From the NCBI RefSeq assembly GCF_003334385.1, contig NZ_QOWN01000016.1: DNA of 64,000 nt; one strand, 5' to 3'. The notes below the pieces were generated by a model, which saw nothing but the letters and a program-made list of their open reading frames with translations, was not told the origin of the DNA and did not search any database. This document shows, in pieces, positions 15,770 to 64,000 of the stretch (positions within the stretch are counted from its first letter, which is position 1; every line of letters starts with the position of its first letter). A program made the translations under genes and the position numbers. The DNA is from Escherichia coli (GTDB lineage Bacteria; Pseudomonadota; Gammaproteobacteria; Enterobacterales; Enterobacteriaceae).

Positions 15770-16486
15770 TCACAAGTAGACTACGCTTATCACAGCTTTC
15801 CCATCAAGTTCGATTTTTTCTGAACCGCCTAAATCATTCGCGATAGATGCGCTCACCTGAAGCGGTATAATGGCGTTCGTTACAGGAGTTGGGGTTGTTT
15901 CACCTGGTTTTACAAAGGTGTAATAATAGCTTTGATCGACTGCAAGCGGATAAGCGGTGAGCGTTTGCCATGCTCTTTTTTGCCCTGTTATGACGGCATC
16001 TGCACCTGCTATTGATACAGCTAACGTCTGGCTACCATTGCTGGCACTAATGTTGTTGCTATCAATTAACACGGCATAACTACCGATATTTTTATTATCT
16101 TTTGTTTTCCCTAAGCCGAATAAGCGCGTTGTCTGGCTAATATAACCTCCGCCATTTAAGGTATATTTTACACCACTCTGACCCCCACTATCTTTTCCGG
16201 TGGTCATACTATCCATTCGTGTATCACGAGCGGTAATCGCAATGCTGGTAGCGGATTCGCAAGTTATAGTCATATTAATATTACGTGTTCCAATCTGTGT
16301 GTAGTGCTGCGTTGAAAGTCTATTGACTGAATGACTACCGAAGTTAACAACTCCGCCGTTGCTTAGTATTGGAGTACAAGCTGCAGCTTCCAGAGTCACC
16401 TTAACGTCAATTGATACTCTATCAGCGGCTTGCGCTGACATGGCAAAAAAGGCACTTCCGGCAATCAGTAATTTTACATTGTTCAT
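15770..16486 (-). CDS. yhcF: fimbrial-like protein (DUF1120 family), secreted
   Basis: 238-aa ORF with signal peptide MNNVKLLIAGSAFFAMSAQA; paralogous to GltF; last gene of the chaperone-usher cluster. Confidence 0.8.
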   Translation of the reverse strand: MNNVKLLIAGSAFFAMSAQAADRVSIDVKVTLEAAACTPILSNGGVVNFGSHSVNRLSTQHYTQIGTRNINMTITCESATSIAITARDTRMDSMTTGKDSGGQSGVKYTLNGGGYISQTTRLFGLGKTKDNKNIGSYAVLIDSNNISASNGSQTLAVSIAGADAVITGQKRAWQTLTAYPLAVDQSYYYTFVKPGETTPTPVTNAIIPLQVSASIANDLGGSEKIELDGKAVISVVYL

Positions 16487-17034
16487 TTTGCCTCCACCAG
16501 GACCGTCAGATTGCCTGTAATATCTGTCATGTCGGTTAGTTCCCCTTCATCCTTAAAAGCTGGAGCCATTGTCAGTGTGAGGCTAACGCTTTTACCGCTA
16601 TCAATTACCACTTCTTGACCATTTTGCATAAACACCAGCCAATTATTGGGGGAAGTACTAATTGATGCTGTTCCTGTGCTGCCCGGATTGTCATTTTTGC
16701 CACTGGCTAACGCCAGGTCGAGATTGTTACTACCTGAAAATGCATCGCTGGCGATCAGATTTAATGAACCATTCGGGCCAAATCCAAATCCGTTGTTGGA
16801 AATATTAGCGGTATTCAACTGAACACGAATATGAGCGTCCTGATCGCATTGCATTACCAGCGTGATTGTTCTGTCTGCTAATTGTGTTGTTTTACCCCGG
16901 TCAACTTGGCGCATGGCAGCACTTCGTTTGCCATAGTCGATATTTTGTATGCTACTGGAGATATTACACTCTGCCTGAGCGGCCATGGCGAAGTTCAGCA
17001 GCAGGCATCCTGTTATTATCCGTTTCATTGGCAC
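16483..17034 (-). CDS. yhcE: fimbrial-like secreted protein, apparently intact
   Basis: 183-aa ORF with signal peptide (..LLLNFAMAAQA); overlaps yhcD stop and yhcF start; no IS sequence present. Confidence 0.75.
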   Translation of the reverse strand: MPMKRIITGCLLLNFAMAAQAECNISSSIQNIDYGKRSAAMRQVDRGKTTQLADRTITLVMQCDQDAHIRVQLNTANISNNGFGFGPNGSLNLIASDAFSGSNNLDLALASGKNDNPGSTGTASISTSPNNWLVFMQNGQEVVIDSGKSVSLTLTMAPAFKDEGELTDMTDITGNLTVLVEAK

Positions 17035-19406
17035 TCTCCTGTTGCTGTCTCATAGAACACATCTTTTGGTGCATCTTCTGGGAATGTAAGGTGAATACGG
17101 CATGATTGCTGCTCATCTTTTATATCTAGCACCATGTCCGGTTTGATGTTATTGAGGAATACAACACCGTCATCCACTGATGTTGTCAGATAGTTGCCTT
17201 CACTATCTTCAATCGCAACGCCTCTGGGCAGTTTTTTGCCGTCGGAAAGTGTGATATTGAGTAATGCACGGCGTTGTGTTATCGCACTGAATCCGACTTT
17301 CCCTACTGCACCACGGCCTTGTTTGATCATTTTTGTGCCGTTACCGATATCGACATTTTTTGGCAAGCTGGCGGTATCGATCTCAACTCCTGATGTTCGC
17401 CACGACTGGATTGATGGAATGACGGCATTACCCCGAAAATCTGTCCATACTGGGCCTGCCTGAGATGTAATTCTGACACCTGCAATATTGTTATCCATTT
17501 TTGCGATGGCGAAAGTGTCATTGATAGTCCACGGTGAAAAGGTCACTCCCTGATCATGTACGGCAATACCACCTGACATCGTACCGTTGTAAGTACGGCT
17601 ATCACTGCCGCTTGCTCCTGCGGCAAGGCTGACTTGGGTGTAATGGAGATTGGAACTGATACTGCCGTTCAAGCTCGTTTCACGTTCGTCGTGATCTCGT
17701 TCAGCATTCACATAGTAGGACATCTCATCTGAGACGACTCCCATGACACCAGTACCATAGTGGGTTTTATGATCGTCATGGCGAGTATACAGTGTGGCGG
17801 TGTTTGATCTGCCAAATGGAATACTGATGTTGACGTAGAACAGATCACCATCGTCTTCATTATTTTCTGAAGCACTAAGTTGATGCTGCCAGTTGACGGA
17901 AACCGTGGCGTGTTTGAACGCTTTGTTCCAGTTAATATTAAGGTTGCTTGAGTCATTGTCACCGTCGTAACTATATGTTTTATAGCCACTGATGTTGAAA
18001 CCACCCAGAATGGAGTTAGACCAGTTTAAACCAAGCGCATAAGTGCTTTTAGTCGGATCGGTATAATCATCATCAATCGCTTCAGACAGTTCGCGATAAT
18101 GGCGATCAGATCGAGTGAGGCTGGTTGTTAGCCCAAGTGAAAATGGGAGATTGTAGTTCGCGTCAAGACGATATTTCTGTCCTTGCAGTGAGTCTTTCGT
18201 ATCCTGCGATGTACTAATTTGGCTGCTCACTGTTAAATCGGGCAGGGGAACCAGACTCGACCGGATTGATGCCGCCTGATAATTTTCTGCTACGATAACG
18301 CCGCCGTTCATTGCACTCCAGCGTGTCAGATTCCATCCGCTCGATGCACTAATTACCCAAGGTGATTCGTCATAGTCATCGTCTACCCGCCCTATCGCGA
18401 AGCGATAACCCTGGAAGCTTTCTACATGCTGATTAAACAGGGTGGAGGGAACAATATAGTTGTGCGAACTACCGTCTGTTTCGACAACGGTGACATTAAG
18501 ATCACTATTACCATTGCGAACAGGTACATCAGGGATAGTGAATGCGCCCGCAGGAACCAGAATGGAATGAATTAAAACTCCTTGTTGACGAATCTCGACA
18601 CGAGCCTGAGAGGTGTTGGCTATACCAGTAACTTGCACACCACTGCCGCTGGTTTGCAATGCGTTGTCCGGTGCGATTTCGATACCGTAAATACTGGCTC
18701 CTTCCAACACGCTATTATTGAGGTTAACTTCACCTGCTCGCATGAGTGTTTTAAGATCTGTAAAGGTACGTTGAAGGTAGGTTGACGAGTTCTGGTTACT
18801 GAATGTGCCATTTGTTTGTGTAAGGAACTGATGGCTGCGTAACATCCAGTCATTAATATTAATCCCGCCTTCAAGTGCAGCCTGGGAGTAGTCCGAACTC
18901 CCATTAGAAAATTCTGCACGGCTGCTCATCAGAGAGTAGTTTAGCAGCGCAGCTGTTCCACCAGTTGCTGCGTTTGTGAGATCCAACCCTATGGGAATGA
19001 TCGCCTGTGGTGAAACGATAATATCTAACGCTTCCTGGTTAGGTAATGGTGTGATTGTGGTACCCGGGTAGGACAATATATAGTCGTAACAGCCATTTTT
19101 TTCTTCAGAAGGAATTTTTAAACCGGCTTGTTGCAGAAATGCCTGATCAAGACAAATGTCGCCATTTTCATCAAAGCGCGTAGCAATGTTGCCTTTTTTT
19201 TCGCCATTTACTGATACTATCAGTGAATATTCACCTGGCAAAAAACGGGCTGAACGGGAAAAATAATGCGATATATTAGGATCTACACCTAGTGATTTTA
19301 ATGTTTCCCGATCAAAATCAACAGCGGCAATCTCTATACCATCTGCATTGGCTGGGGGAGAAAAGGCAAAACCAATGGTGTAGGCCAGTAACGTTTTTTT
19401 TAACAT
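17025..19406 (-). CDS. yhcD: fimbrial outer membrane usher protein
   Basis: ORF 17025..19424 (799 aa); likely start at MLKKTLLAYTIGFAFSPPANA (793 aa); usher-sized, between chaperone and subunit genes. Confidence 0.88.
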   Translation of the reverse strand: MLKKTLLAYTIGFAFSPPANADGIEIAAVDFDRETLKSLGVDPNISHYFSRSARFLPGEYSLIVSVNGEKKGNIATRFDENGDICLDQAFLQQAGLKIPSEEKNGCYDYILSYPGTTITPLPNQEALDIIVSPQAIIPIGLDLTNAATGGTAALLNYSLMSSRAEFSNGSSDYSQAALEGGININDWMLRSHQFLTQTNGTFSNQNSSTYLQRTFTDLKTLMRAGEVNLNNSVLEGASIYGIEIAPDNALQTSGSGVQVTGIANTSQARVEIRQQGVLIHSILVPAGAFTIPDVPVRNGNSDLNVTVVETDGSSHNYIVPSTLFNQHVESFQGYRFAIGRVDDDYDESPWVISASSGWNLTRWSAMNGGVIVAENYQAASIRSSLVPLPDLTVSSQISTSQDTKDSLQGQKYRLDANYNLPFSLGLTTSLTRSDRHYRELSEAIDDDYTDPTKSTYALGLNWSNSILGGFNISGYKTYSYDGDNDSSNLNINWNKAFKHATVSVNWQHQLSASENNEDDGDLFYVNISIPFGRSNTATLYTRHDDHKTHYGTGVMGVVSDEMSYYVNAERDHDERETSLNGSISSNLHYTQVSLAAGASGSDSRTYNGTMSGGIAVHDQGVTFSPWTINDTFAIAKMDNNIAGVRITSQAGPVWTDFRGNAVIPSIQSWRTSGVEIDTASLPKNVDIGNGTKMIKQGRGAVGKVGFSAITQRRALLNITLSDGKKLPRGVAIEDSEGNYLTTSVDDGVVFLNNIKPDMVLDIKDEQQSCRIHLTFPEDAPKDVFYETATGECQ

Positions 19407-19426
19407 CCTTGTCGCTCCAGGCAAAG

Positions 19427-20101
19427 TTATTTTAAGTCAGTGACATATTTATTACCGCGATAACCATATCGGCTGGCTGGGTAAAACTCGACTTTTGTAT
19501 CCGTAGCGTTTGTTAATGCAGTAGTTGTACTGGTGTGTGGTAGAAAATAGGTCTTATTTATAGCCCCCGTTTTTCCTGAAGGGAGCGTTTTAAATTGTAA
19601 GGTCATACGAACGACATAATTACTGGGGTTGCTAATCTCAATTTGGTCGCCATTTTTACGCCATTCCAGGAATTTCCAGGTCTCTCGCTCTTCCGGCAGG
19701 GAAGCCGGGTGGATCAGTACAGGTAGATCCTGACGAATTGAAACAGTAACTCTGCTGCTCTTGTCATCTTTTGGTGGAATACCTTCGAACGTTACGCGTT
19801 TCAGCTCTTCTGATTGCAGAGGAACAGTCGCCTGAAGTAAAAATCGAACCTGTTGTACTTGACCGGCTTCAACACGAATAACGGGCTGAGTCGGGATTAA
19901 ACGAATTGATTTATTGCTTTCAGGCAAATCAACAATGGTGGTGTAAAGCAATGAAGGATGATCATCTGTATTCTTAATATTAATACTAGCTTCACCACGC
20001 TTTTCATCAACCAGCAATACTGATGTTTCAGGAACCATCCCTGTGGCTAAGGTATTCATTGATGTTGTTATAAATACAGTGAATGTAATGTGTCTGAGCA
20101 T
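19427..20101 (-). CDS. yhcA: fimbrial periplasmic chaperone (PapD-like)
   Basis: 224-aa ORF with signal peptide; 2 bp upstream of usher gene. Confidence 0.88.
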   Translation of the reverse strand: MLRHITFTVFITTSMNTLATGMVPETSVLLVDEKRGEASINIKNTDDHPSLLYTTIVDLPESNKSIRLIPTQPVIRVEAGQVQQVRFLLQATVPLQSEELKRVTFEGIPPKDDKSSRVTVSIRQDLPVLIHPASLPEERETWKFLEWRKNGDQIEISNPSNYVVRMTLQFKTLPSGKTGAINKTYFLPHTSTTTALTNATDTKVEFYPASRYGYRGNKYVTDLK

Positions 20102-20272
20102 TTAAATTAAAACTCCTGTAATAATGATAAATAACGCAGAAACATATTGTTAATATATGTTATGCACTGTTTGCGATGAGATTGATTAAGACAGACCATG
20201 TCATAGGGCATAATCTGTCCGAGTTATAGCTAACTGGTTAATGCGTAAAAATAAAAACTGTATTACAAGTTC

Positions 20273-21037
20273 TTATAAATACTGAACGCTGATAGTGACG
20301 TTACCATCCAGTTTGATCGTTTCATCAGAACCAAGAATAGTATTGTCATTTACCGCAGCATCAATCAGTAACGGGAAGGTGACCGCTGTAATGGCAACAG
20401 GTGTCAGTTCCCCTGTTTTTGCAACAGAATAACCGCGCTCGATTGCTGAGCAACTTGTCAGCGAGCAGAATGCGCCATTAGATGAGGCTTTCCATGTGGG
20501 GGTCGCTGCTGACCAGTGGTCAGTTTGAATCAGGTCGACAGGAATTTCACCTGTATCGTCCGCCGCGTGAATCCCACCATTAGACCTGTCAATACCAATG
20601 GATGCAGCGCCAATTTTTTGTCCATTAGGCGCAGAACCTAAACCAAAGGCGTTTTTCGTTCCCTTCATATCTACGAGAGTATCATAAGCTTTTTCAATAT
20701 AGGATGTGTCGTTTAACGCTACAATGGTCGACTGACGGTTATCCTTGGAGGTTACAGCAATTAGCGTTGGTGCTGTGCAGGTTATATTTAATGTGCTGTT
20801 TTTGCGGCCCAGTTGAACCAGTTTATTACTTTTACCGGTCGGATTCAGCGCACTGTTATGATGTTTCCCATAGTCAACAATGCCGCCGCCCGTAACAACT
20901 GGGGTACATGCACCAGGGGTATACTCGCCGATGATAGTTAATTCTGTATCAGTTGAATCTGTTGCCATGGCACTGAATGCTGCAACAGAAAGTGCTGCAC
21001 AAATAGCAGCTGTTGTGAGGTTCTTTTTGAAAAACAT
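20273..21037 (-). CDS. gltF: GltF, periplasmic fimbrial-subunit-like protein (DUF1120)
   Basis: 254-aa ORF with signal peptide MFFKKNLTTAAICAALSVAAFSAMA; paralogous to YhcF; first gene of the chaperone-usher cluster. Confidence 0.85.
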   Translation of the reverse strand: MFFKKNLTTAAICAALSVAAFSAMATDSTDTELTIIGEYTPGACTPVVTGGGIVDYGKHHNSALNPTGKSNKLVQLGRKNSTLNITCTAPTLIAVTSKDNRQSTIVALNDTSYIEKAYDTLVDMKGTKNAFGLGSAPNGQKIGAASIGIDRSNGGIHAADDTGEIPVDLIQTDHWSAATPTWKASSNGAFCSLTSCSAIERGYSVAKTGELTPVAITAVTFPLLIDAAVNDNTILGSDETIKLDGNVTISVQYL

Positions 21038-58150: not shown

Positions 58151-59480
58151 TCGTAAATATTTCGGTACCGATGGGATTCGTGGTCGTGTAGGGGATGCGC
58201 CGATCACACCTGATTTTGTGCTTAAGCTGGGTTGGGCCGCGGGTAAAGTGCTGGCGCGCCACGGCTCCCGTAAGATTATTATTGGTAAAGACACGCGTAT
58301 TTCTGGCTATATGCTGGAGTCAGCACTGGAAGCGGGTCTGGCGGCAGCGGGCCTTTCCGCACTCTTCACTGGCCCGATGCCAACACCGGCCGTGGCTTAT
58401 CTGACGCGTACCTTCCGCGCAGAGGCCGGAATTGTGATATCTGCATCGCATAACCCGTTCTACGATAATGGCATTAAATTCTTCTCTATCGACGGCACCA
58501 AACTGCCGGATGCGGTAGAAGAGGCCATCGAAGCGGAAATGGAAAAGGAGATCAGCTGCGTTGATTCGGCAGAACTGGGTAAAGCCAGCCGTATCGTTGA
58601 TGCCGCGGGTCGCTATATCGAGTTTTGCAAAGCCACGTTCCCGAACGAACTTAGCCTCAGTGAACTGAAGATTGTGGTGGATTGTGCAAACGGTGCGACT
58701 TATCACATCGCGCCGAACGTGCTGCGCGAACTGGGGGCGAACGTTATCGCTATCGGTTGTGAGCCAAACGGTGTAAACATCAATGCCGAAGTGGGGGCTA
58801 CCGACGTTCGCGCGCTCCAGGCTCGTGTGCTGGCTGAAAAAGCGGATCTCGGTATTGCCTTCGACGGCGATGGCGATCGCGTGATTATGGTTGACCATGA
58901 AGGCAATAAAGTCGATGGCGATCAGATCATGTATATCATCGCGCGTGAAGGTCTTCGTCAGGGCCAGCTGCGTGGTGGCGCTGTGGGTACATTGATGAGC
59001 AACATGGGGCTTGAACTGGCGCTGAAACAGTTAGGAATTCCATTTGCGCGCGCGAAAGTGGGTGACCGCTACGTACTGGAAAAAATGCAGGAGAAAGGCT
59101 GGCGTATCGGTGCAGAGAATTCCGGTCATGTGATCCTGCTGGATAAAACTACTACCGGTGACGGCATCGTTGCTGGCTTGCAGGTGCTGGCGGCGATGGC
59201 ACGTAACCATATGAGCCTGCACGACCTTTGCAGCGGCATGAAAATGTTCCCGCAGATTCTGGTTAACGTACGTTACACCGCAGGTAGCGGCGATCCACTT
59301 GAGCATGAGTCAGTTAAAGCCGTGACCGCAGAGGTTGAAGCTGCGCTGGGCAACCGTGGACGCGTGTTGCTGCGTAAATCCGGCACCGAACCGTTAATTC
59401 GCGTGATGGTGGAAGGCGAAGACGAAGCGCAGGTGACTGAATTTGCACACCGCATCGCCGATGCAGTAAAAGCCGTTTAA
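58143..59480 (+). CDS. glmM: phosphoglucosamine mutase
   Basis: 445-aa ORF; active-site SASHNP motif; 8-bp overlap with folP. Confidence 0.95.
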
Positions 59481-59499
59481 AGCGTTAGATAACTGGCTA

Positions 59500-59527
59500 A
59501 AAAGGCGGCGATTGTCGCCTTTTTTCT
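59500..59527 (+). terminator. rho-independent terminator after glmM
   Basis: AAAAAGGCGGCGATTGTCGCCTTTTTTCTC. Confidence 0.8.
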
Positions 59528-59707
59528 CAGCGAACACATCGGTTTTGCTGTTTTTTTCCGCAGTTGATACAATGCGATAAAATTGCCCTTGCGAAGGTCA
59601 TTCGCTTTGGTTAGTATTCACACCCGCTTCAGTGGGAAAGATTAAAAACTCCCGCTTTATTGGTTGAAGCATTGGTACGCGGCAACTCCGCAAGGAACAG
59701 GTTGATT

Positions 59708-60040
59708 ATGTATGAAGCTCTTTTAGTAGTTTTCCTTATTGTGGCAATTGGCCTTGTTGGTCTGATCATGCTGCAGCAAGGTAAAGGCGCTGATATGGGA
59801 GCCTCCTTCGGAGCAGGCGCTTCCGCTACGCTGTTTGGTTCAAGTGGTTCTGGTAACTTCATGACCCGCATGACGGCGCTGCTGGCAACGTTATTCTTCA
59901 TCATCAGTCTGGTGCTGGGTAACATCAATAGCAACAAAACCAATAAAGGTAGCGAATGGGAAAATCTGAGTGCACCGGCGAAAACCGAACAAACTCAGCC
60001 AGCTGCTCCGGCTAAGCCGACCAGCGATATCCCGAACTAA
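59708..60040 (+). CDS. secG: protein translocase subunit SecG
   Basis: ORF 59660..60040; start at MYEALLVVFLIVAIGLVGLIMLQQGKGADMG, 110 aa. Confidence 0.95.
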   Translation: MYEALLVVFLIVAIGLVGLIMLQQGKGADMGASFGAGASATLFGSSGSGNFMTRMTALLATLFFIISLVLGNINSNKTNKGSEWENLSAPAKTEQTQPAAPAKPTSDIPN

Positions 60041-60054
60041 AAAGTAGTATCCGT

Positions 60055-60141
60055 GCCGAGGTGGTGGAATTGGTAGACACGCTACCTTGAGGTGGTAGTG
60101 CCCAATAGGGCTTACGGGTTCAAGTCCCGTCCTCGGTACCA
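60055..60141 (+). tRNA. leuU: tRNA-Leu (anticodon GAG)
   Basis: GCCGAGGTGGTGGAATTGGTAGACACGCTACCTTGAGGTGGTAG...GGGTTCAAGTCCCGTCCTCGGTACCA; long variable arm, 3' CCA; co-transcribed with secG. Confidence 0.95.
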
Positions 60142-60149
60142 AATTCCAG

Positions 60150-60178
60150 AAAAGAGACGCTGAAAAGCGTCTTTTTTC
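60150..60178 (+). terminator. rho-independent terminator after leuU
   Basis: AAAAGAGACGCTGAAAAGCGTCTTTTTTCG. Confidence 0.8.
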
Positions 60179-60599
60179 GTTTTGGTCCTGGTCTGAGGAA
60201 TGGTTGTCAGGTATCTGTATCTCGTCCAGTTGCTTTACTCGTAGCTGGTACCTTGAAACGATGGTGCCGGTACGCCTTAGTTATAAATTTTTCCCTTCTA
60301 CTGACATAATTGGCACTTTATTGTGTCAACTCCAGTTCCGGTACGAATACGGATATGTTTACTTCTCGATAAACCATCCTGCTCCTGTCAGTATAACGAC
60401 TGATGGCTACGTTCTGCGTAATGTTTAGAGACGCATTGATAATGTTATTTAATTACTGAGAACGCAATGGCCGCATCATTTAAAAAGAAAAAACTAACAG
60501 TGTTTCGTTCTGATATGGATCAGAGTTGAAAAACATGTCTGATATAAAATTAAACATTGTTGATAATTGTTTATATTGGTTGTGAACTTGGATTTCTGG

Positions 60600-62225
60600 A
60601 TGACAGTATTCAACAAATTTGCTAGAACTTTTAAATCTCATTGGTTGTTGTATCTTTGTGTTATTGTTTTTGGTATTACGAACTTAGTCGCTTCTTCCGG
60701 AGCGCATATGGTTCAGCGCTTGCTGTTCTTCGTTCTGACCATCCTGGTTGTAAAACGTATATCATCCCTTCCGCTTCGCCTGCTTGTTACCGCACCATTT
60801 GTGTTACTGACTGCGGCAGACATGAGTATTAGCCTCTATTCATGGTGTACCTTTGGTACAACTTTCAATGATGGATTTGCGATTAGTGTGCTCCAGAGTG
60901 ATCCGGATGAAGTTGTCAAAATGCTGGGGATGTATATCCCTTATCTATGTGCCTTTGCTTTTTTATCCCTTCTTTTTTTGGCAGTAATAATAAAATATGA
61001 TGTTTCCTTGCCGACAAAAAAAGTGACAGGAATATTATTGCTGATTGTCATTTCGGGCAGTTTATTTTCCGCTTGTCAATTTGCTTATAAAGATGCAAAA
61101 AATAAAAAAGCGTTCAGTCCATATATACTAGCGTCGCGATTTGCTACCTATACGCCGTTTTTCAATCTCAACTATTTTGCTTTAGCAGCGAAAGAGCATC
61201 AAAGATTACTCTCAATTGCAAACACGGTGCCGTATTTTCAATTATCAGTCAGGGATACAGGTATTGATACCTACGTGTTGATTGTGGGGGAGTCTGTACG
61301 TGTCGACAATATGTCTTTGTATGGATATACACGCTCTACGACACCGCAAGTTGAAGCACAAAGAAAACAGATCAAACTGTTTAATCAAGCAATAAGCGGC
61401 GCACCTTACACTGCGCTGTCGGTTCCCCTTTCTTTAACTGCTGATTCTGTTTTGAGTCATGACATTCATAATTACCCCGACAACATTATTAATATGGCTA
61501 ATCAAGCAGGATTTCAGACTTTCTGGCTAAGCTCGCAATCCGCTTTTCGGCAGAATGGTACAGCAGTTACCAGTATCGCCATGCGCGCCATGGAAACAGT
61601 TTATGTCAGAGGATTTGATGAATTGTTGTTGCCGCATTTATCGCAAGCATTACAGCAAAATACGCAGCAAAAGAAACTGATTGTTCTTCATTTAAATGGA
61701 AGCCATGAACCGGCTTGTAGCGCCTATCCGCAATCCAGCGCCGTGTTTCAACCGCAGGACGATCAGGATGCCTGCTATGACAACTCCATTCATTACACAG
61801 ATAGTTTGCTAGGTCAGGTTTTTGAATTATTAAAAGATCGCCGCGCCTCGGTCATGTATTTTGCCGACCACGGCCTGGAACGTGACCCTACGAAGAAGAA
61901 CGTCTATTTTCATGGAGGCAGGGAGGCTAGCCAGCAGGCATATCATGTCCCGATGTTTATCTGGTATAGCCCCGTTCTTGGGGATGGCGTGGATCGCACA
62001 ACGGAAAACAACATCTTTTCGACAGCTTACAATAATTACCTTATTAATGCGTGGATGGGGGTAACAAAGCCGGAACAGCCGCAAACGCTTGAGGAAGTGA
62101 TTGCACACTATAAAGGAGACTCACGGGTTGTGGATGCAAACCATGATGTTTTCGATTATGTGATGCTCAGAAAGGAGTTTACAGAGGATAAGCAAGGTAA
62201 CCCCACCCCTGAAGGGCAGGGTTGA
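60600..62225 (+). CDS. yhbX: inner-membrane sulfatase / phosphoethanolamine-transferase-like protein (EptA paralog family)
   Basis: ORF 60567..62225 (the ORF track's M at 60567 is probably a TTG); annotated start is the in-frame internal ATG giving MTVFNKFARTFKSHWLLYL, 541 aa; N-terminal TM helices plus C-terminal sulfatase-like domain; AT-rich. Confidence 0.85.
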   Translation: MTVFNKFARTFKSHWLLYLCVIVFGITNLVASSGAHMVQRLLFFVLTILVVKRISSLPLRLLVTAPFVLLTAADMSISLYSWCTFGTTFNDGFAISVLQSDPDEVVKMLGMYIPYLCAFAFLSLLFLAVIIKYDVSLPTKKVTGILLLIVISGSLFSACQFAYKDAKNKKAFSPYILASRFATYTPFFNLNYFALAAKEHQRLLSIANTVPYFQLSVRDTGIDTYVLIVGESVRVDNMSLYGYTRSTTPQVEAQRKQIKLFNQAISGAPYTALSVPLSLTADSVLSHDIHNYPDNIINMANQAGFQTFWLSSQSAFRQNGTAVTSIAMRAMETVYVRGFDELLLPHLSQALQQNTQQKKLIVLHLNGSHEPACSAYPQSSAVFQPQDDQDACYDNSIHYTDSLLGQVFELLKDRRASVMYFADHGLERDPTKKNVYFHGGREASQQAYHVPMFIWYSPVLGDGVDRTTENNIFSTAYNNYLINAWMGVTKPEQPQTLEEVIAHYKGDSRVVDANHDVFDYVMLRKEFTEDKQGNPTPEGQG

Positions 62226-62232
62226 TGTCGAA

Positions 62233-63591
<1,359 letters not shown>

Positions 63592-63627
63592 TTAATTAAC
63601 TGATGATGAGCCTGTATTTCCGCTCTC

Positions 63628-63666
63628 ACTGAATTTTTATGCAAAATAAATGAGTTTTCATTTAAT
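63628..63666. promoter_or_regulatory. candidate ArgR operator (tandem ARG boxes) upstream of argG
   Basis: ACTGAATTTTTATGCAAA and ATAAATGAGTTTTCATTT resemble the TGAAT-N-ATTCA ARG-box consensus; 50-90 bp upstream of argG start. Confidence 0.4.
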
Positions 63667-63801
63667 CATCTTTTATCGGAGACAGGAAGAGTTTAGTGTG
63701 TTTTTTGTAAAATAATGCGCTTAAGGGAGAGCAGGAGAAGGCAAAAGTATTCAACAAATGAAAGTGAACTGGATATTCATTCACATGATTAGCAATAAAC
63801 G

Positions 63802-63908
63802 TTGACAAAATGTGGCGTGGATCACTATAATGCCTGCAGATTTTACGTCCCGTCTCGGTACACCAAATCCCAGCAGTATTTGCATTTTTTACCCAAAACG
63901 AGTAGAAT
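63802..63908 (+). promoter_or_regulatory. metY tRNA promoter region (two sigma-70-like promoters)
   Basis: TTGACA (63802-63807), 18-bp spacer, TATAAT (63826-63831); TTGCAT (63880-63885), 17-bp spacer, TAGAAT (63903-63908), the latter about 15 bp upstream of the tRNA 5' end. Confidence 0.6.
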
Positions 63909-63923
63909 TTGCCACGTTTCAGG

Positions 63924-64000
<77 letters not shown>

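Follow-up and report, generated by a model that had tools for sequence, protein, structure and literature searches.

The segment between the tRNA gene leuU and argG that carries yhbX (positions 60184-62231 of the window, the whole stretch of 64,000 nucleotides of E. coli DNA analysed here) is probably a horizontally acquired, single-gene islet, which replaced an HTH gene at this site after the split from E. marmotae. yhbX is a known gene, and the event is a gene replacement of an ordinary kind at a variable locus. The sequence-only reading had proposed an ancient, ameliorated acquisition associated with the tRNA; the acquisition could be sharpened into what looks like a precise replacement, in which the HTH gene was lost along with the argG terminator, whereas a link to the tRNA found no support. 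Features of the region are collected in Table 1.

Table 1. Features of the leuU-argG region, in window coordinates.
Feature	Position	Strand	Evidence or remark
leuU, tRNA-Leu(GAG)	60055..60141	+	ARAGORN; Rfam tRNA, 52.8 bits; conserved left flank, outside the variable segment
leuU (secG-leuU) intrinsic terminator	60149..60183	+	terminator scan: 13-pair stem and T run
AT-rich non-coding leader, GC 0.385	60184..60599	.	in the yhbX-specific segment, not in the HTH-type allele
yhbX CDS, 541 aa	60600..62225	+	RefSeq E. coli annotation
Predicted catalytic/metal-binding span of YhbX	61290..61913	+	26-sequence alignment; codons checked
E231, predicted active site	61290-61292	+	
T271 (nucleophile), predicted active site	61410-61412	+	
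H369, predicted active site	61704-61706	+	
D423-H424, predicted active site	61866-61871	+	
H438, predicted active site	61911-61913	+	
G-rich 11-bp hairpin, antisense of the final yhbX codons	62199..62223	-	12 nt past the argG stop codon
Spacer of seven bases between the yhbX and argG stop codons	62226..62232	.	
argG, conserved right flank	62233..63576	-	ORF list and annotation

Among 5,426 complete E. coli genomes, 5,179 carried the yhbX segment, and in 237 (4.4%) positions 60184-62231 were exactly replaced by a 1,168-bp cassette encoding a 317-aa HTH protein; ten genomes matched neither cassette. Homology between the two alleles stops at 60183, the final base of the leuU terminator, and resumes at 62232, placing the right breakpoint at 62231/62232. 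A candidate third type of junction (H200) was found to be the ordinary yhbX allele. PADLOC returned no match for YhbX, and for the HTH protein only weak matches limited to the HTH motif.

In the E. coli strains compared, yhbX has been passed down together with its flanks from a time before the deepest splits sampled, its dS being 0.054-0.097 versus 0.046-0.172 for the flanks. The dN/dS ratio of 0.09-0.13 in these strains indicates that the gene is under purifying selection. The leader is 98.1-98.3% identical in divergent E. coli. It presumably holds the predicted yhbX promoter, and one weak sigma-70-like site is present upstream of the gene, at 60539-60567; no Rfam family matched the leader. 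At E ≤ 1, the region 59400-64000 gave two tRNAs and one chance-level SAM_alpha match in Rfam, and nothing else. The distance from the tRNA to yhbX is 458 bp, and an alternative start of the yhbX reading frame is possible at a TTG at 60567.

Outside E. coli the locus looks different. Among the matches listed, YhbX was absent from all 80 ArgG loci, and 15 syntenic Enterobacteriaceae loci had no yhbX between leuU and argG, the interval consisting there of 114-565 bp or of unrelated cargo of 1.7-8.4 kb. The gene was also absent from this site in Salmonella and in two Klebsiella species: the gap holds a YwqG-family gene in Salmonella Senftenberg and a three-gene module in Klebsiella. A 209-aa HTH protein of Klebsiella, considered as a relative of the 317-aa protein of E. 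coli, is unrelated to it. In E. marmotae, S. enterica and C. koseri, the site is occupied by the gene for the 317-aa HTH protein. The flanks themselves are well conserved, the argG product being 94-97% identical at the amino acid level in other Enterobacteriaceae, among the matches listed. Beyond E. coli, the genus Escherichia was sampled with E. marmotae alone, which is therefore the one bracket for the acquisition, and the E. marmotae label of the locus concerned (L098) comes from the cluster membership of its HTH protein. Two proteins taken for divergent syntenic YhbX (P0129 and P0157) were artefacts. Locus L085 is a frameshifted E. coli contig. L086 shows 1,518 substitutions relative to the window in 9,354 ungapped bases, and all but two of them (1,516) are C>T, the pattern of an assembly from bisulfite-treated DNA.

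A protein search with YhbX gave only near-identical E. coli entries, and the distribution of the family was taken from a search of a representative library. At E ≤ 1e-30, the subfamily comprised 120 representative clusters among 1.84 billion proteins. The family looks mobile. The closest relatives beyond the 50%-identity cluster of YhbX itself are 42-48% identical and belong to scattered taxa: Buttiauxella, a Pectobacterium sp., Mixta and Microvirgula. Within E. coli, a paralogue with 64% identity is found on a plasmid and in an island with pap genes, the glnH end of which carries an integrase. No counterpart of the 65-aa membrane ORF located ahead of this plasmid and island paralogue exists in 60142-60650.

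The orientation of the replacement is suggested by the transcription terminators. argG is convergent with yhbX, the two stop codons lying 7 bp apart. A canonical argG terminator is present in other alleles and genera, being conserved in the HTH alleles of E. marmotae, S. enterica and C. koseri, and is absent only from the yhbX allele, so that yhbX is probably the derived replacement. What remains for argG in the yhbX allele is a single terminator-like element, the G-rich hairpin of Table 1; its predicted RNA fold (−18.7 kcal/mol, z = −1.4) is not significant, it is without a canonical U tract, and the terminator scan did not report it. The leuU terminator hairpin, on the other side, was kept across all genera compared. 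We suggest that yhbX with its 416-bp leader entered the E. coli lineage after the E. marmotae split, that it precisely replaced the prior occupant, so that both the gene for the 317-aa HTH protein and the argG terminator were lost, and that the new allele then rose to some 95% of E. coli. Homologous recombination in the conserved flanks is the likely route, and not site-specific integration targeted at the tRNA.

The composition of yhbX is atypical, as had been noticed from the bare sequence. Against 44 other long ORFs of the window, one other low-GC cluster being excluded (mean GC 0.526, sd 0.025; mean GC3 0.562, sd 0.041), yhbX has a GC of 0.430 (z = −3.8) and a GC3 of 0.421 (z = −3.4). Its synonymous codon usage is distant (z = +2.5), rare codons make up 7.9% versus 3.8%, and a GC as low as that of 60184-62231 occurs in only 0.8% of 2-kb sliding windows. 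The AT-rich region of some 420 bp described between the leuU terminator and yhbX was recovered as well, with a length of 416 bp. A composition within the norm and universal presence at the locus had been set beforehand as findings refuting the acquisition of yhbX, and neither holds. Nevertheless, composition alone is weak evidence for acquisition. The Buttiauxella homologue (GC 0.426) and the syntenic HTH gene (0.375-0.40) also have a low GC, and therefore GC alone cannot date the event. The gene cannot be called ameliorated, because its GC remains some 10 points lower than that of its neighbours. It is ancient only in relation to the diversification of E. coli, being older than the deepest splits sampled there; in E. 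marmotae, Salmonella and C. koseri the HTH gene is found instead. Two observations count against an acquisition: no donor was found for yhbX, and its dinucleotide signature is not anomalous (delta* 52.7 versus a mean of 53.3).

If an integrase-bearing element had once entered leuU and then decayed, leaving yhbX alone, the segment would be the remnant of a classical tRNA-targeted island. It does follow a tRNA gene, its GC is atypical, and its presence varies within the species, as in P4-type integrase islands at leuX, pheV or selC. In addition, the leuU alleles do not follow the species tree, with differences mostly in the 3' half of the tRNA, which could reflect past exchange at the tRNA. We nevertheless consider such an origin very unlikely. 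No ORF for a tyrosine or serine recombinase was found in 60142-62232 or next to the segment, nor in the alternative cargos seen at the leuU-argG site. No repeat derived from the tRNA, and in particular from its 3' end, was present: aligned locally with the segment, the tRNA scored at best 18, whereas Markov shuffles averaged 19.0, and no stretch of 12 nt or longer matched exactly. One repeat (D3, 20 nt, 75% identity) was at chance level and was rejected. That integrase and direct repeat are missing had already been read from the sequence. Moreover, the junction is not inside the tRNA, whose sequence does not differ between the yhbX and HTH alleles: allele homology runs 42 bp past it, through the terminator, and the other breakpoint falls exactly at the argG stop codon. 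Finally, the cargo is a single gene in 2 kb. Because the boundary lies past the terminator, integrase and att repeat are lacking, and the same site elsewhere holds unrelated cargo without integrase, the adjacency of yhbX to leuU looks incidental, the gene sitting in a permissive gap between converging transcription units.

Two other histories concern which occupant came first. It could be that yhbX is ancestral at the locus and was repeatedly lost elsewhere, its low GC reflecting a constraint specific to the gene, such as the hydrophobic nature of a membrane protein or control exerted through AT-rich DNA. GC is indeed low in all homologues examined (0.43 in E. coli, 0.437 in the 64%-identical paralogue, 0.426 in Buttiauxella), the dinucleotide signature is normal, and yhbX is under purifying selection, with a divergence within E. 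coli like that of the flanks. Yet GC3, which reports on synonymous sites, is low too; the gene is missing at the locus from the 15 syntenic genomes among the matches listed, from Salmonella and from the two Klebsiella species, and in E. marmotae, Salmonella and C. koseri the syntenic position is taken by the HTH gene. Only the yhbX allele has lost the conserved argG terminator, and the nearest relatives out of the cluster are less than 50% identical, the Buttiauxella one being at another locus. Taken with these points, an ancestral yhbX is most unlikely. Alternatively, the HTH cassette could be the newcomer in E. coli, re-imported by flanking recombination from another Escherichia or Salmonella-like lineage, with yhbX there earlier. 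Its diversity is low (229 of the 237 copies are at least 99% identical), and dS of the HTH gene between E. coli and E. marmotae is 0.24, about half that of the flanks (0.41-0.51). Recombination may thus have moved the HTH allele itself, and a simple reading of one allele as ancestral and the other as derived is weakened accordingly. Set against this are the eight remaining E. coli copies, only 95-99% identical, which suggest some depth, and the lack of any donor closer than 90.8% nucleotide identity. We hold this scenario to be improbable; even if it were true, the HTH gene would still be the older occupant at the level of the genus, and yhbX would still have been acquired.

The proposed acquisition by replacement is of a known kind, integrase-less chromosomal hotspots or replacement islets being found between conserved core genes. 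As in such hotspots, the secG-leuU and argG flanks hold differing cargo between genera and within species (yhbX, the gene for the 317-aa HTH protein, YwqG, the three-gene module, other cargo, or a spacer of 114-565 bp), with sharp breakpoints, no mobility genes and a low-GC cargo; yhbX itself combines an atypical composition with a patchy distribution, its relatives of 42-48% identity being in scattered genera. Here, however, the islet is very small, with yhbX as its single gene, its allele is near fixation in E. coli, and its insertion took out the terminator of the neighbouring gene.

The product was described from the sequence as a membrane protein of the phosphoethanolamine-transferase family with no established substrate, and this description stood. 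The catalytic domain matches PF00884 (E 3e-56, residues 224-467). In the AF2 model (pLDDT 90.7) and by hydropathy, about five N-terminal transmembrane helices fall within aa 1-165, and are followed by bridging helices; the sulfatase-fold domain, which is periplasmic, spans aa 224-520. Pfam's own model of the N-terminal domain did not match YhbX; NCBIfam alignments span residues 42-460, and phmmer aligned the protein with NmEptA (5FGN, from residue 41) and with EcEptC. With Foldseek, the model matched 5FGN, 9NWW and 6A82. EptA and MCR-1 (5FGN, 9NWW) are full-length structural matches (TM 0.62-0.63, E 3e-19), and TMt values to the catalytic domains of EptA, EptC and MCR-1 were 0.73-0.76, the periplasmic domain of EcEptC being the second-best structural match. 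Residues E231, T271, H369, D423, H424 and H438 were invariant across the 26-sequence alignment, and they align, in order, with E240, T280, H383, D452, H453 and H465 of NmEptA.

YhbX thus shares with EptA and MCR-1 an N-terminal multi-helix membrane domain, a periplasmic domain of the sulfatase/alkaline-phosphatase fold, and a conserved Thr nucleophile with Glu, Asp and His ligands for zinc. By homology, it would be an EptA/MCR-type enzyme of the inner membrane and a predicted transferase, in which a metal-activated Thr271 would take phosphoethanolamine from phosphatidylethanolamine and hand it on to an acceptor in the envelope. However, its identity to EptA and MCR-1 is just 19-21%, and nothing ties it to lipid A or polymyxin resistance. 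It scored below the curated NCBIfam cut-off for every equivalog tested: EptA (122 and 94 bits versus 561 and 660), EptB (105 versus 493), CptA/EptC (142 and 123 versus 404 and 900) and MCR-1 to MCR-13 (at most 71 versus at least 1075). The score of 142 bits for the CptA subfamily is its best at the family level after the generic domain model. OpgE/YbiP is about 30% identical to YhbX, in the catalytic domain only. Of these E. coli paralogues, EptC/CptA acts on heptose-I phosphate, and OpgE/YbiP on osmoregulated periplasmic glucans. Since YhbX is a separate small subfamily, our guess is that its acceptor differs from those of EptA, EptB, EptC/CptA and OpgE. That it represents a separate transferase subfamily with a novel envelope acceptor, which would be neither lipid A, Kdo, heptose-I phosphate, periplasmic glucans nor cellulose, seems rather unlikely; if true, yhbX and HTH would be alleles of different function, both retained in E. 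coli by selection and not by drift. In the papers found to mention yhbX, no activity of the protein is reported: it is listed as a member of the phosphoethanolamine-transferase family with no function established, and Proteus PMI3040 is reported to match YhbX most closely among E. coli proteins, then YbiP and CptA (PMC4013655).

yhbX is one of five phosphoethanolamine-transferase paralogues in E. coli K-12. The search for its function is sharpened by its probable status as a lineage-specific acquisition that is selectively maintained, with an intact predicted catalytic site; otherwise it is a routine case of gene replacement at a chromosomal hotspot. As about 4% of natural E. coli are without yhbX and have a regulator-like gene instead, comparison strains are ready-made. 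The argG-yhbX pair has been listed as a convergent 'excludon' candidate (PMC12288877), which may result from the loss of the canonical argG terminator from the yhbX allele. The gaps between leuU and yhbX and between argG and yhbX have been chosen by strain engineers as 'neutral' sites for insertion (bioRxiv 10.1101/2023.02.03.527047; PMC12421378).

Two alleles account for nearly all complete E. coli genomes at this locus. The yhbX segment was found in 5,179 of 5,426, with full-length copies 97.3–100% identical, and in 237 a 1,168-bp segment of GC 0.37 takes its place, encoding a 317-aa helix-turn-helix (HTH) protein on the argG strand. Ten genomes match neither. Homology between the two alleles ends at the final base of the leuU terminator (60183) and restarts at 62232, a single base short of the argG stop codon; these two points define the variable unit, almost as the sequence-only reading had placed it. 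The window belongs to the E. coli chromosome. The surrounding region, 59600–62400, has a match in all 5,426 genomes, many at 100%, and the local order is ftsH, folP, glmM, secG, tRNA-Leu(GAG), yhbX, argG, tRNA-Met. In several genomes (H1, H111, H140, H201), yhbX is broken by IS1, IS903B or ISSen4 or is annotated as two pieces, so some strains tolerate its loss.

Coordinates of features at the yhbX locus and of related genes; L numbers designate loci from other records, other positions are those of the window.
Feature	Position	Strand	Remark
GC-poor ORF block	15770-21037	minus	five adjacent ORFs
leuU, tRNA-Leu(GAG)	60055-60141	plus	
secG-leuU transcript terminator	3' end near 60183		hairpin
Variable unit	60184-62231		
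yhbX	60600-62225		541 aa, RefSeq placement
G-rich hairpin	62199-62223		antisense of final yhbX codons
argG	62233-63576	minus	
HTH gene, 317 aa	L001:3617-4570	minus	
HTH gene, 317 aa	L094:5001-5960		Salmonella enterica
HTH gene, 317 aa	L096:5001-5960		
HTH gene, 317 aa	L098:1904-2857		E. marmotae
YwqG-family gene, 354 aa	L090:5986-7050		Salmonella Senftenberg
yhbX paralogue	L084:188-2099; L089:8459-9526		65-aa membrane ORF upstream

Past the leuU terminator, 416 bp of non-coding DNA (GC 0.385) precede yhbX, and the stop codons of the convergent yhbX and argG genes are spaced by 7 bp. The AT-richness and atypical codon usage first noticed by eye, in the gene and in some 420 bp before it, were confirmed by measurement. 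Compared with 44 other long ORFs of the window, taken without one other low-GC cluster (GC 0.526, sd 0.025; GC3 0.562, sd 0.041), yhbX has a GC of 0.430 (z = -3.8) and a GC3 of 0.421 (z = -3.4). Its synonymous codon usage departs from the window norm by z = +2.5, and it uses rare codons at twice the rate of the other window genes. A GC as low as that of the variable unit occurs in only 0.8% of 2-kb windows. The dinucleotide signature shows nothing unusual. The sole other GC-poor block of the window (GC 0.42–0.46, GC3 0.35–0.44) presumably encodes a chaperone-usher fimbrial cluster, judging by N-terminal sequences and sizes, and is probably another acquired block.

Which allele is the older? 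The 317-aa HTH gene lies between argG and leuU in Salmonella enterica (71% amino acid identity), in Citrobacter koseri (73%) and in a locus labelled E. marmotae because its HTH protein groups with those of Escherichia marmotae; there the flanks are 91–93% identical to the window and the cassette 90.8%. The canonical argG terminator (GGCCGC-N4-GCGGCC and a T run, about 20 nt past the argG stop codon) is present in the E. coli HTH allele, in E. marmotae, in both Salmonella alleles and in the empty Citrobacter youngae site, whereas it is absent from the yhbX allele (62199–62235 of the window), where the sole candidate is a G-rich hairpin lacking a U tract. Since the HTH gene is syntenic in three other taxa, and the terminator is conserved in the other alleles named and missing with yhbX, the HTH gene appears to be the earlier occupant. 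Read most simply, the HTH gene and the argG terminator would be ancestral, and yhbX and its leader would have replaced both in the E. coli lineage. The argG-yhbX pair figures among listed candidates for overlapping transcription, or “excludons” (PMC12288877).

A later exchange of the HTH allele is conceivable, because E. coli and E. marmotae differ at synonymous sites by 0.24 in this gene, roughly half the values of the flanks (0.41–0.51). The leuU sequence (60055–60141 compared with loci L098, L004, L013, L091, L094 and L096) also suggests that exchange has occurred across the locus in the past, as its two forms are at odds with the species tree. It is identical in E. coli, Salmonella and C. 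koseri, and a second form is found in E. marmotae, Citrobacter youngae, Enterobacter and Klebsiella; its 8–9 differences fall on base 1, on the variable and T arms and, in E. marmotae, also on one acceptor-stem pair (positions 3 and 81).

The proposal of an acquired gene is thus supported, and narrowed to a precise replacement in a hypervariable gap on which two transcription units converge; yhbX was already known as a gene, and the evolutionary pattern is of a familiar kind. A tRNA-associated origin finds no such backing: the homology break falls after the leuU terminator, the ORF list shows no integrase at the segment, and no tRNA-derived repeat exceeds chance, the last two absences having been noted from the start. 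In comparisons of K-12 with two divergent E. coli strains, dS was 0.054–0.097 for yhbX and 0.046–0.172 for glmM, secG and argG, which indicates that yhbX and its flanks have been inherited together from roughly the time of the deepest splits sampled. With dN/dS of 0.09–0.13, against 0.02 or less for these housekeeping neighbours, it is kept by purifying selection, although a weaker one. The gene had been called ancient and ameliorated. It is old relative to E. coli, but younger than the genus, and its GC, still far below that of its neighbours, shows that it is not ameliorated.

Other genera were compared through an ArgG scan of at least 80 loci. Among the loci listed, 15 Enterobacteriaceae genomes keep the argG-leuU-secG synteny, and none (0/15) has a YhbX relative among the matches listed; YhbX has likewise been listed for E. 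coli and not for Salmonella LT2 or Citrobacter rodentium (PMC4013655). The leuU-argG interval measures 114–565 bp, without a long ORF, in Citrobacter youngae, C. werkmanii, several Enterobacter, Phytobacter, Superficieibacter and Pseudocitrobacter. It reaches 1.7 kb in Kluyvera (unrelated cargo), 2.8 kb in Pluralibacter sp., 3.3 kb in Enterobacteriaceae isolate RIT691, 3.6 kb in “Escherichia sp. ESNIH1” and 8.4 kb in Pluralibacter gergoviae. It is polymorphic within Salmonella enterica too, Senftenberg having a YwqG-family gene where other strains have the HTH gene. In Klebsiella pneumoniae and K. aerogenes, it holds a module of a 209-aa HTH protein, a YfaZ-like protein and a 131-aa lipoprotein, common to Pluralibacter sp. 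and RIT691, and Shimwellia has part of it, at least the HTH gene (L091, L093, L007, L026, L012); in strain 176 of K. pneumoniae, ISKpn18 interrupts it. The Senftenberg and two Klebsiella cases are chromosomes stored among plasmid records. No integrase lies beside the alternative cargos in any genus compared.

The 317-aa HTH protein belongs to an uncharacterised family. Its best 120 matches, at least 52% identical, come from Pseudomonas, Acinetobacter, Serratia, Photorhabdus, Massilia, Halomonas and others; the gene has a low GC (0.375–0.40) in every host looked at, and is solitary in Serratia and Pseudomonas. For the helical C-terminal domain of the protein (about 270 aa, AF2 pLDDT 79), Pfam, NCBIfam and solved structures yield no match.

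The YhbX family is patchy, GC-poor and at times mobile. A search of 1.84 billion representatives with YhbX gave only 120 clusters at E ≤ 1e-30. Among full-length relatives from outside its own cluster, the nearest (42–48% identical) are from Buttiauxella, a Pectobacterium sp., Mixta gaviniae and the betaproteobacterium Microvirgula, and a Proteus relative is about 35% identical; no donor was found among the relatives compared. The Buttiauxella homologue (GC 0.426, flanks 0.516) lies away from leuU, between an acetyltransferase gene and the kdp operon. E. coli itself has a paralogue (64% amino acid identity, GC 0.437), carried by plasmid pRHB40-C01_2, full length in 446 of the 5,426 chromosomes, with short 3' remnants in some 1,500 others. 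One genome has it as a pseudogene, within an island with P-fimbria (pap) and IS66 genes and a tyrosine recombinase at the glnH end. An apparent 70%-identical syntenic YhbX (L086, Logan SRR3359616) was rejected: 1,516 of its 1,518 differences from the window are C>T, so what was assembled is bisulfite-converted E. coli DNA, not the sequence of a divergent lineage.

YhbX has a sulfatase domain (Pfam, E 3e-56), about five N-terminal membrane helices according to hydropathy and the AlphaFold model (pLDDT 90.7), and a sequence search of solved structures matches it to full-length Neisseria EptA, E. coli EptC and MCR-1; the model has TM scores of 0.62–0.63 to full-length EptA and MCR-1. Residues E231, T271, H369, D423, H424 and H438 do not vary among 26 aligned relatives and correspond to the metal ligands and threonine nucleophile of EptA. 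However, the curated cut-offs for EptA, EptB, CptA and every MCR family lie far above the YhbX scores, which places the protein in the broad phosphoethanolamine-transferase family but in no characterised subfamily. By analogy, Thr271 would take phosphoethanolamine from phosphatidylethanolamine, forming a covalent intermediate, and would pass it to an envelope acceptor. According to PMC4013655, YhbX has no established function. The only literature pointer to it is an indirect hint, a yhbX knockout among reporter-screen hits that the authors discounted on two grounds, one being an altered cell envelope (PMC4551910).
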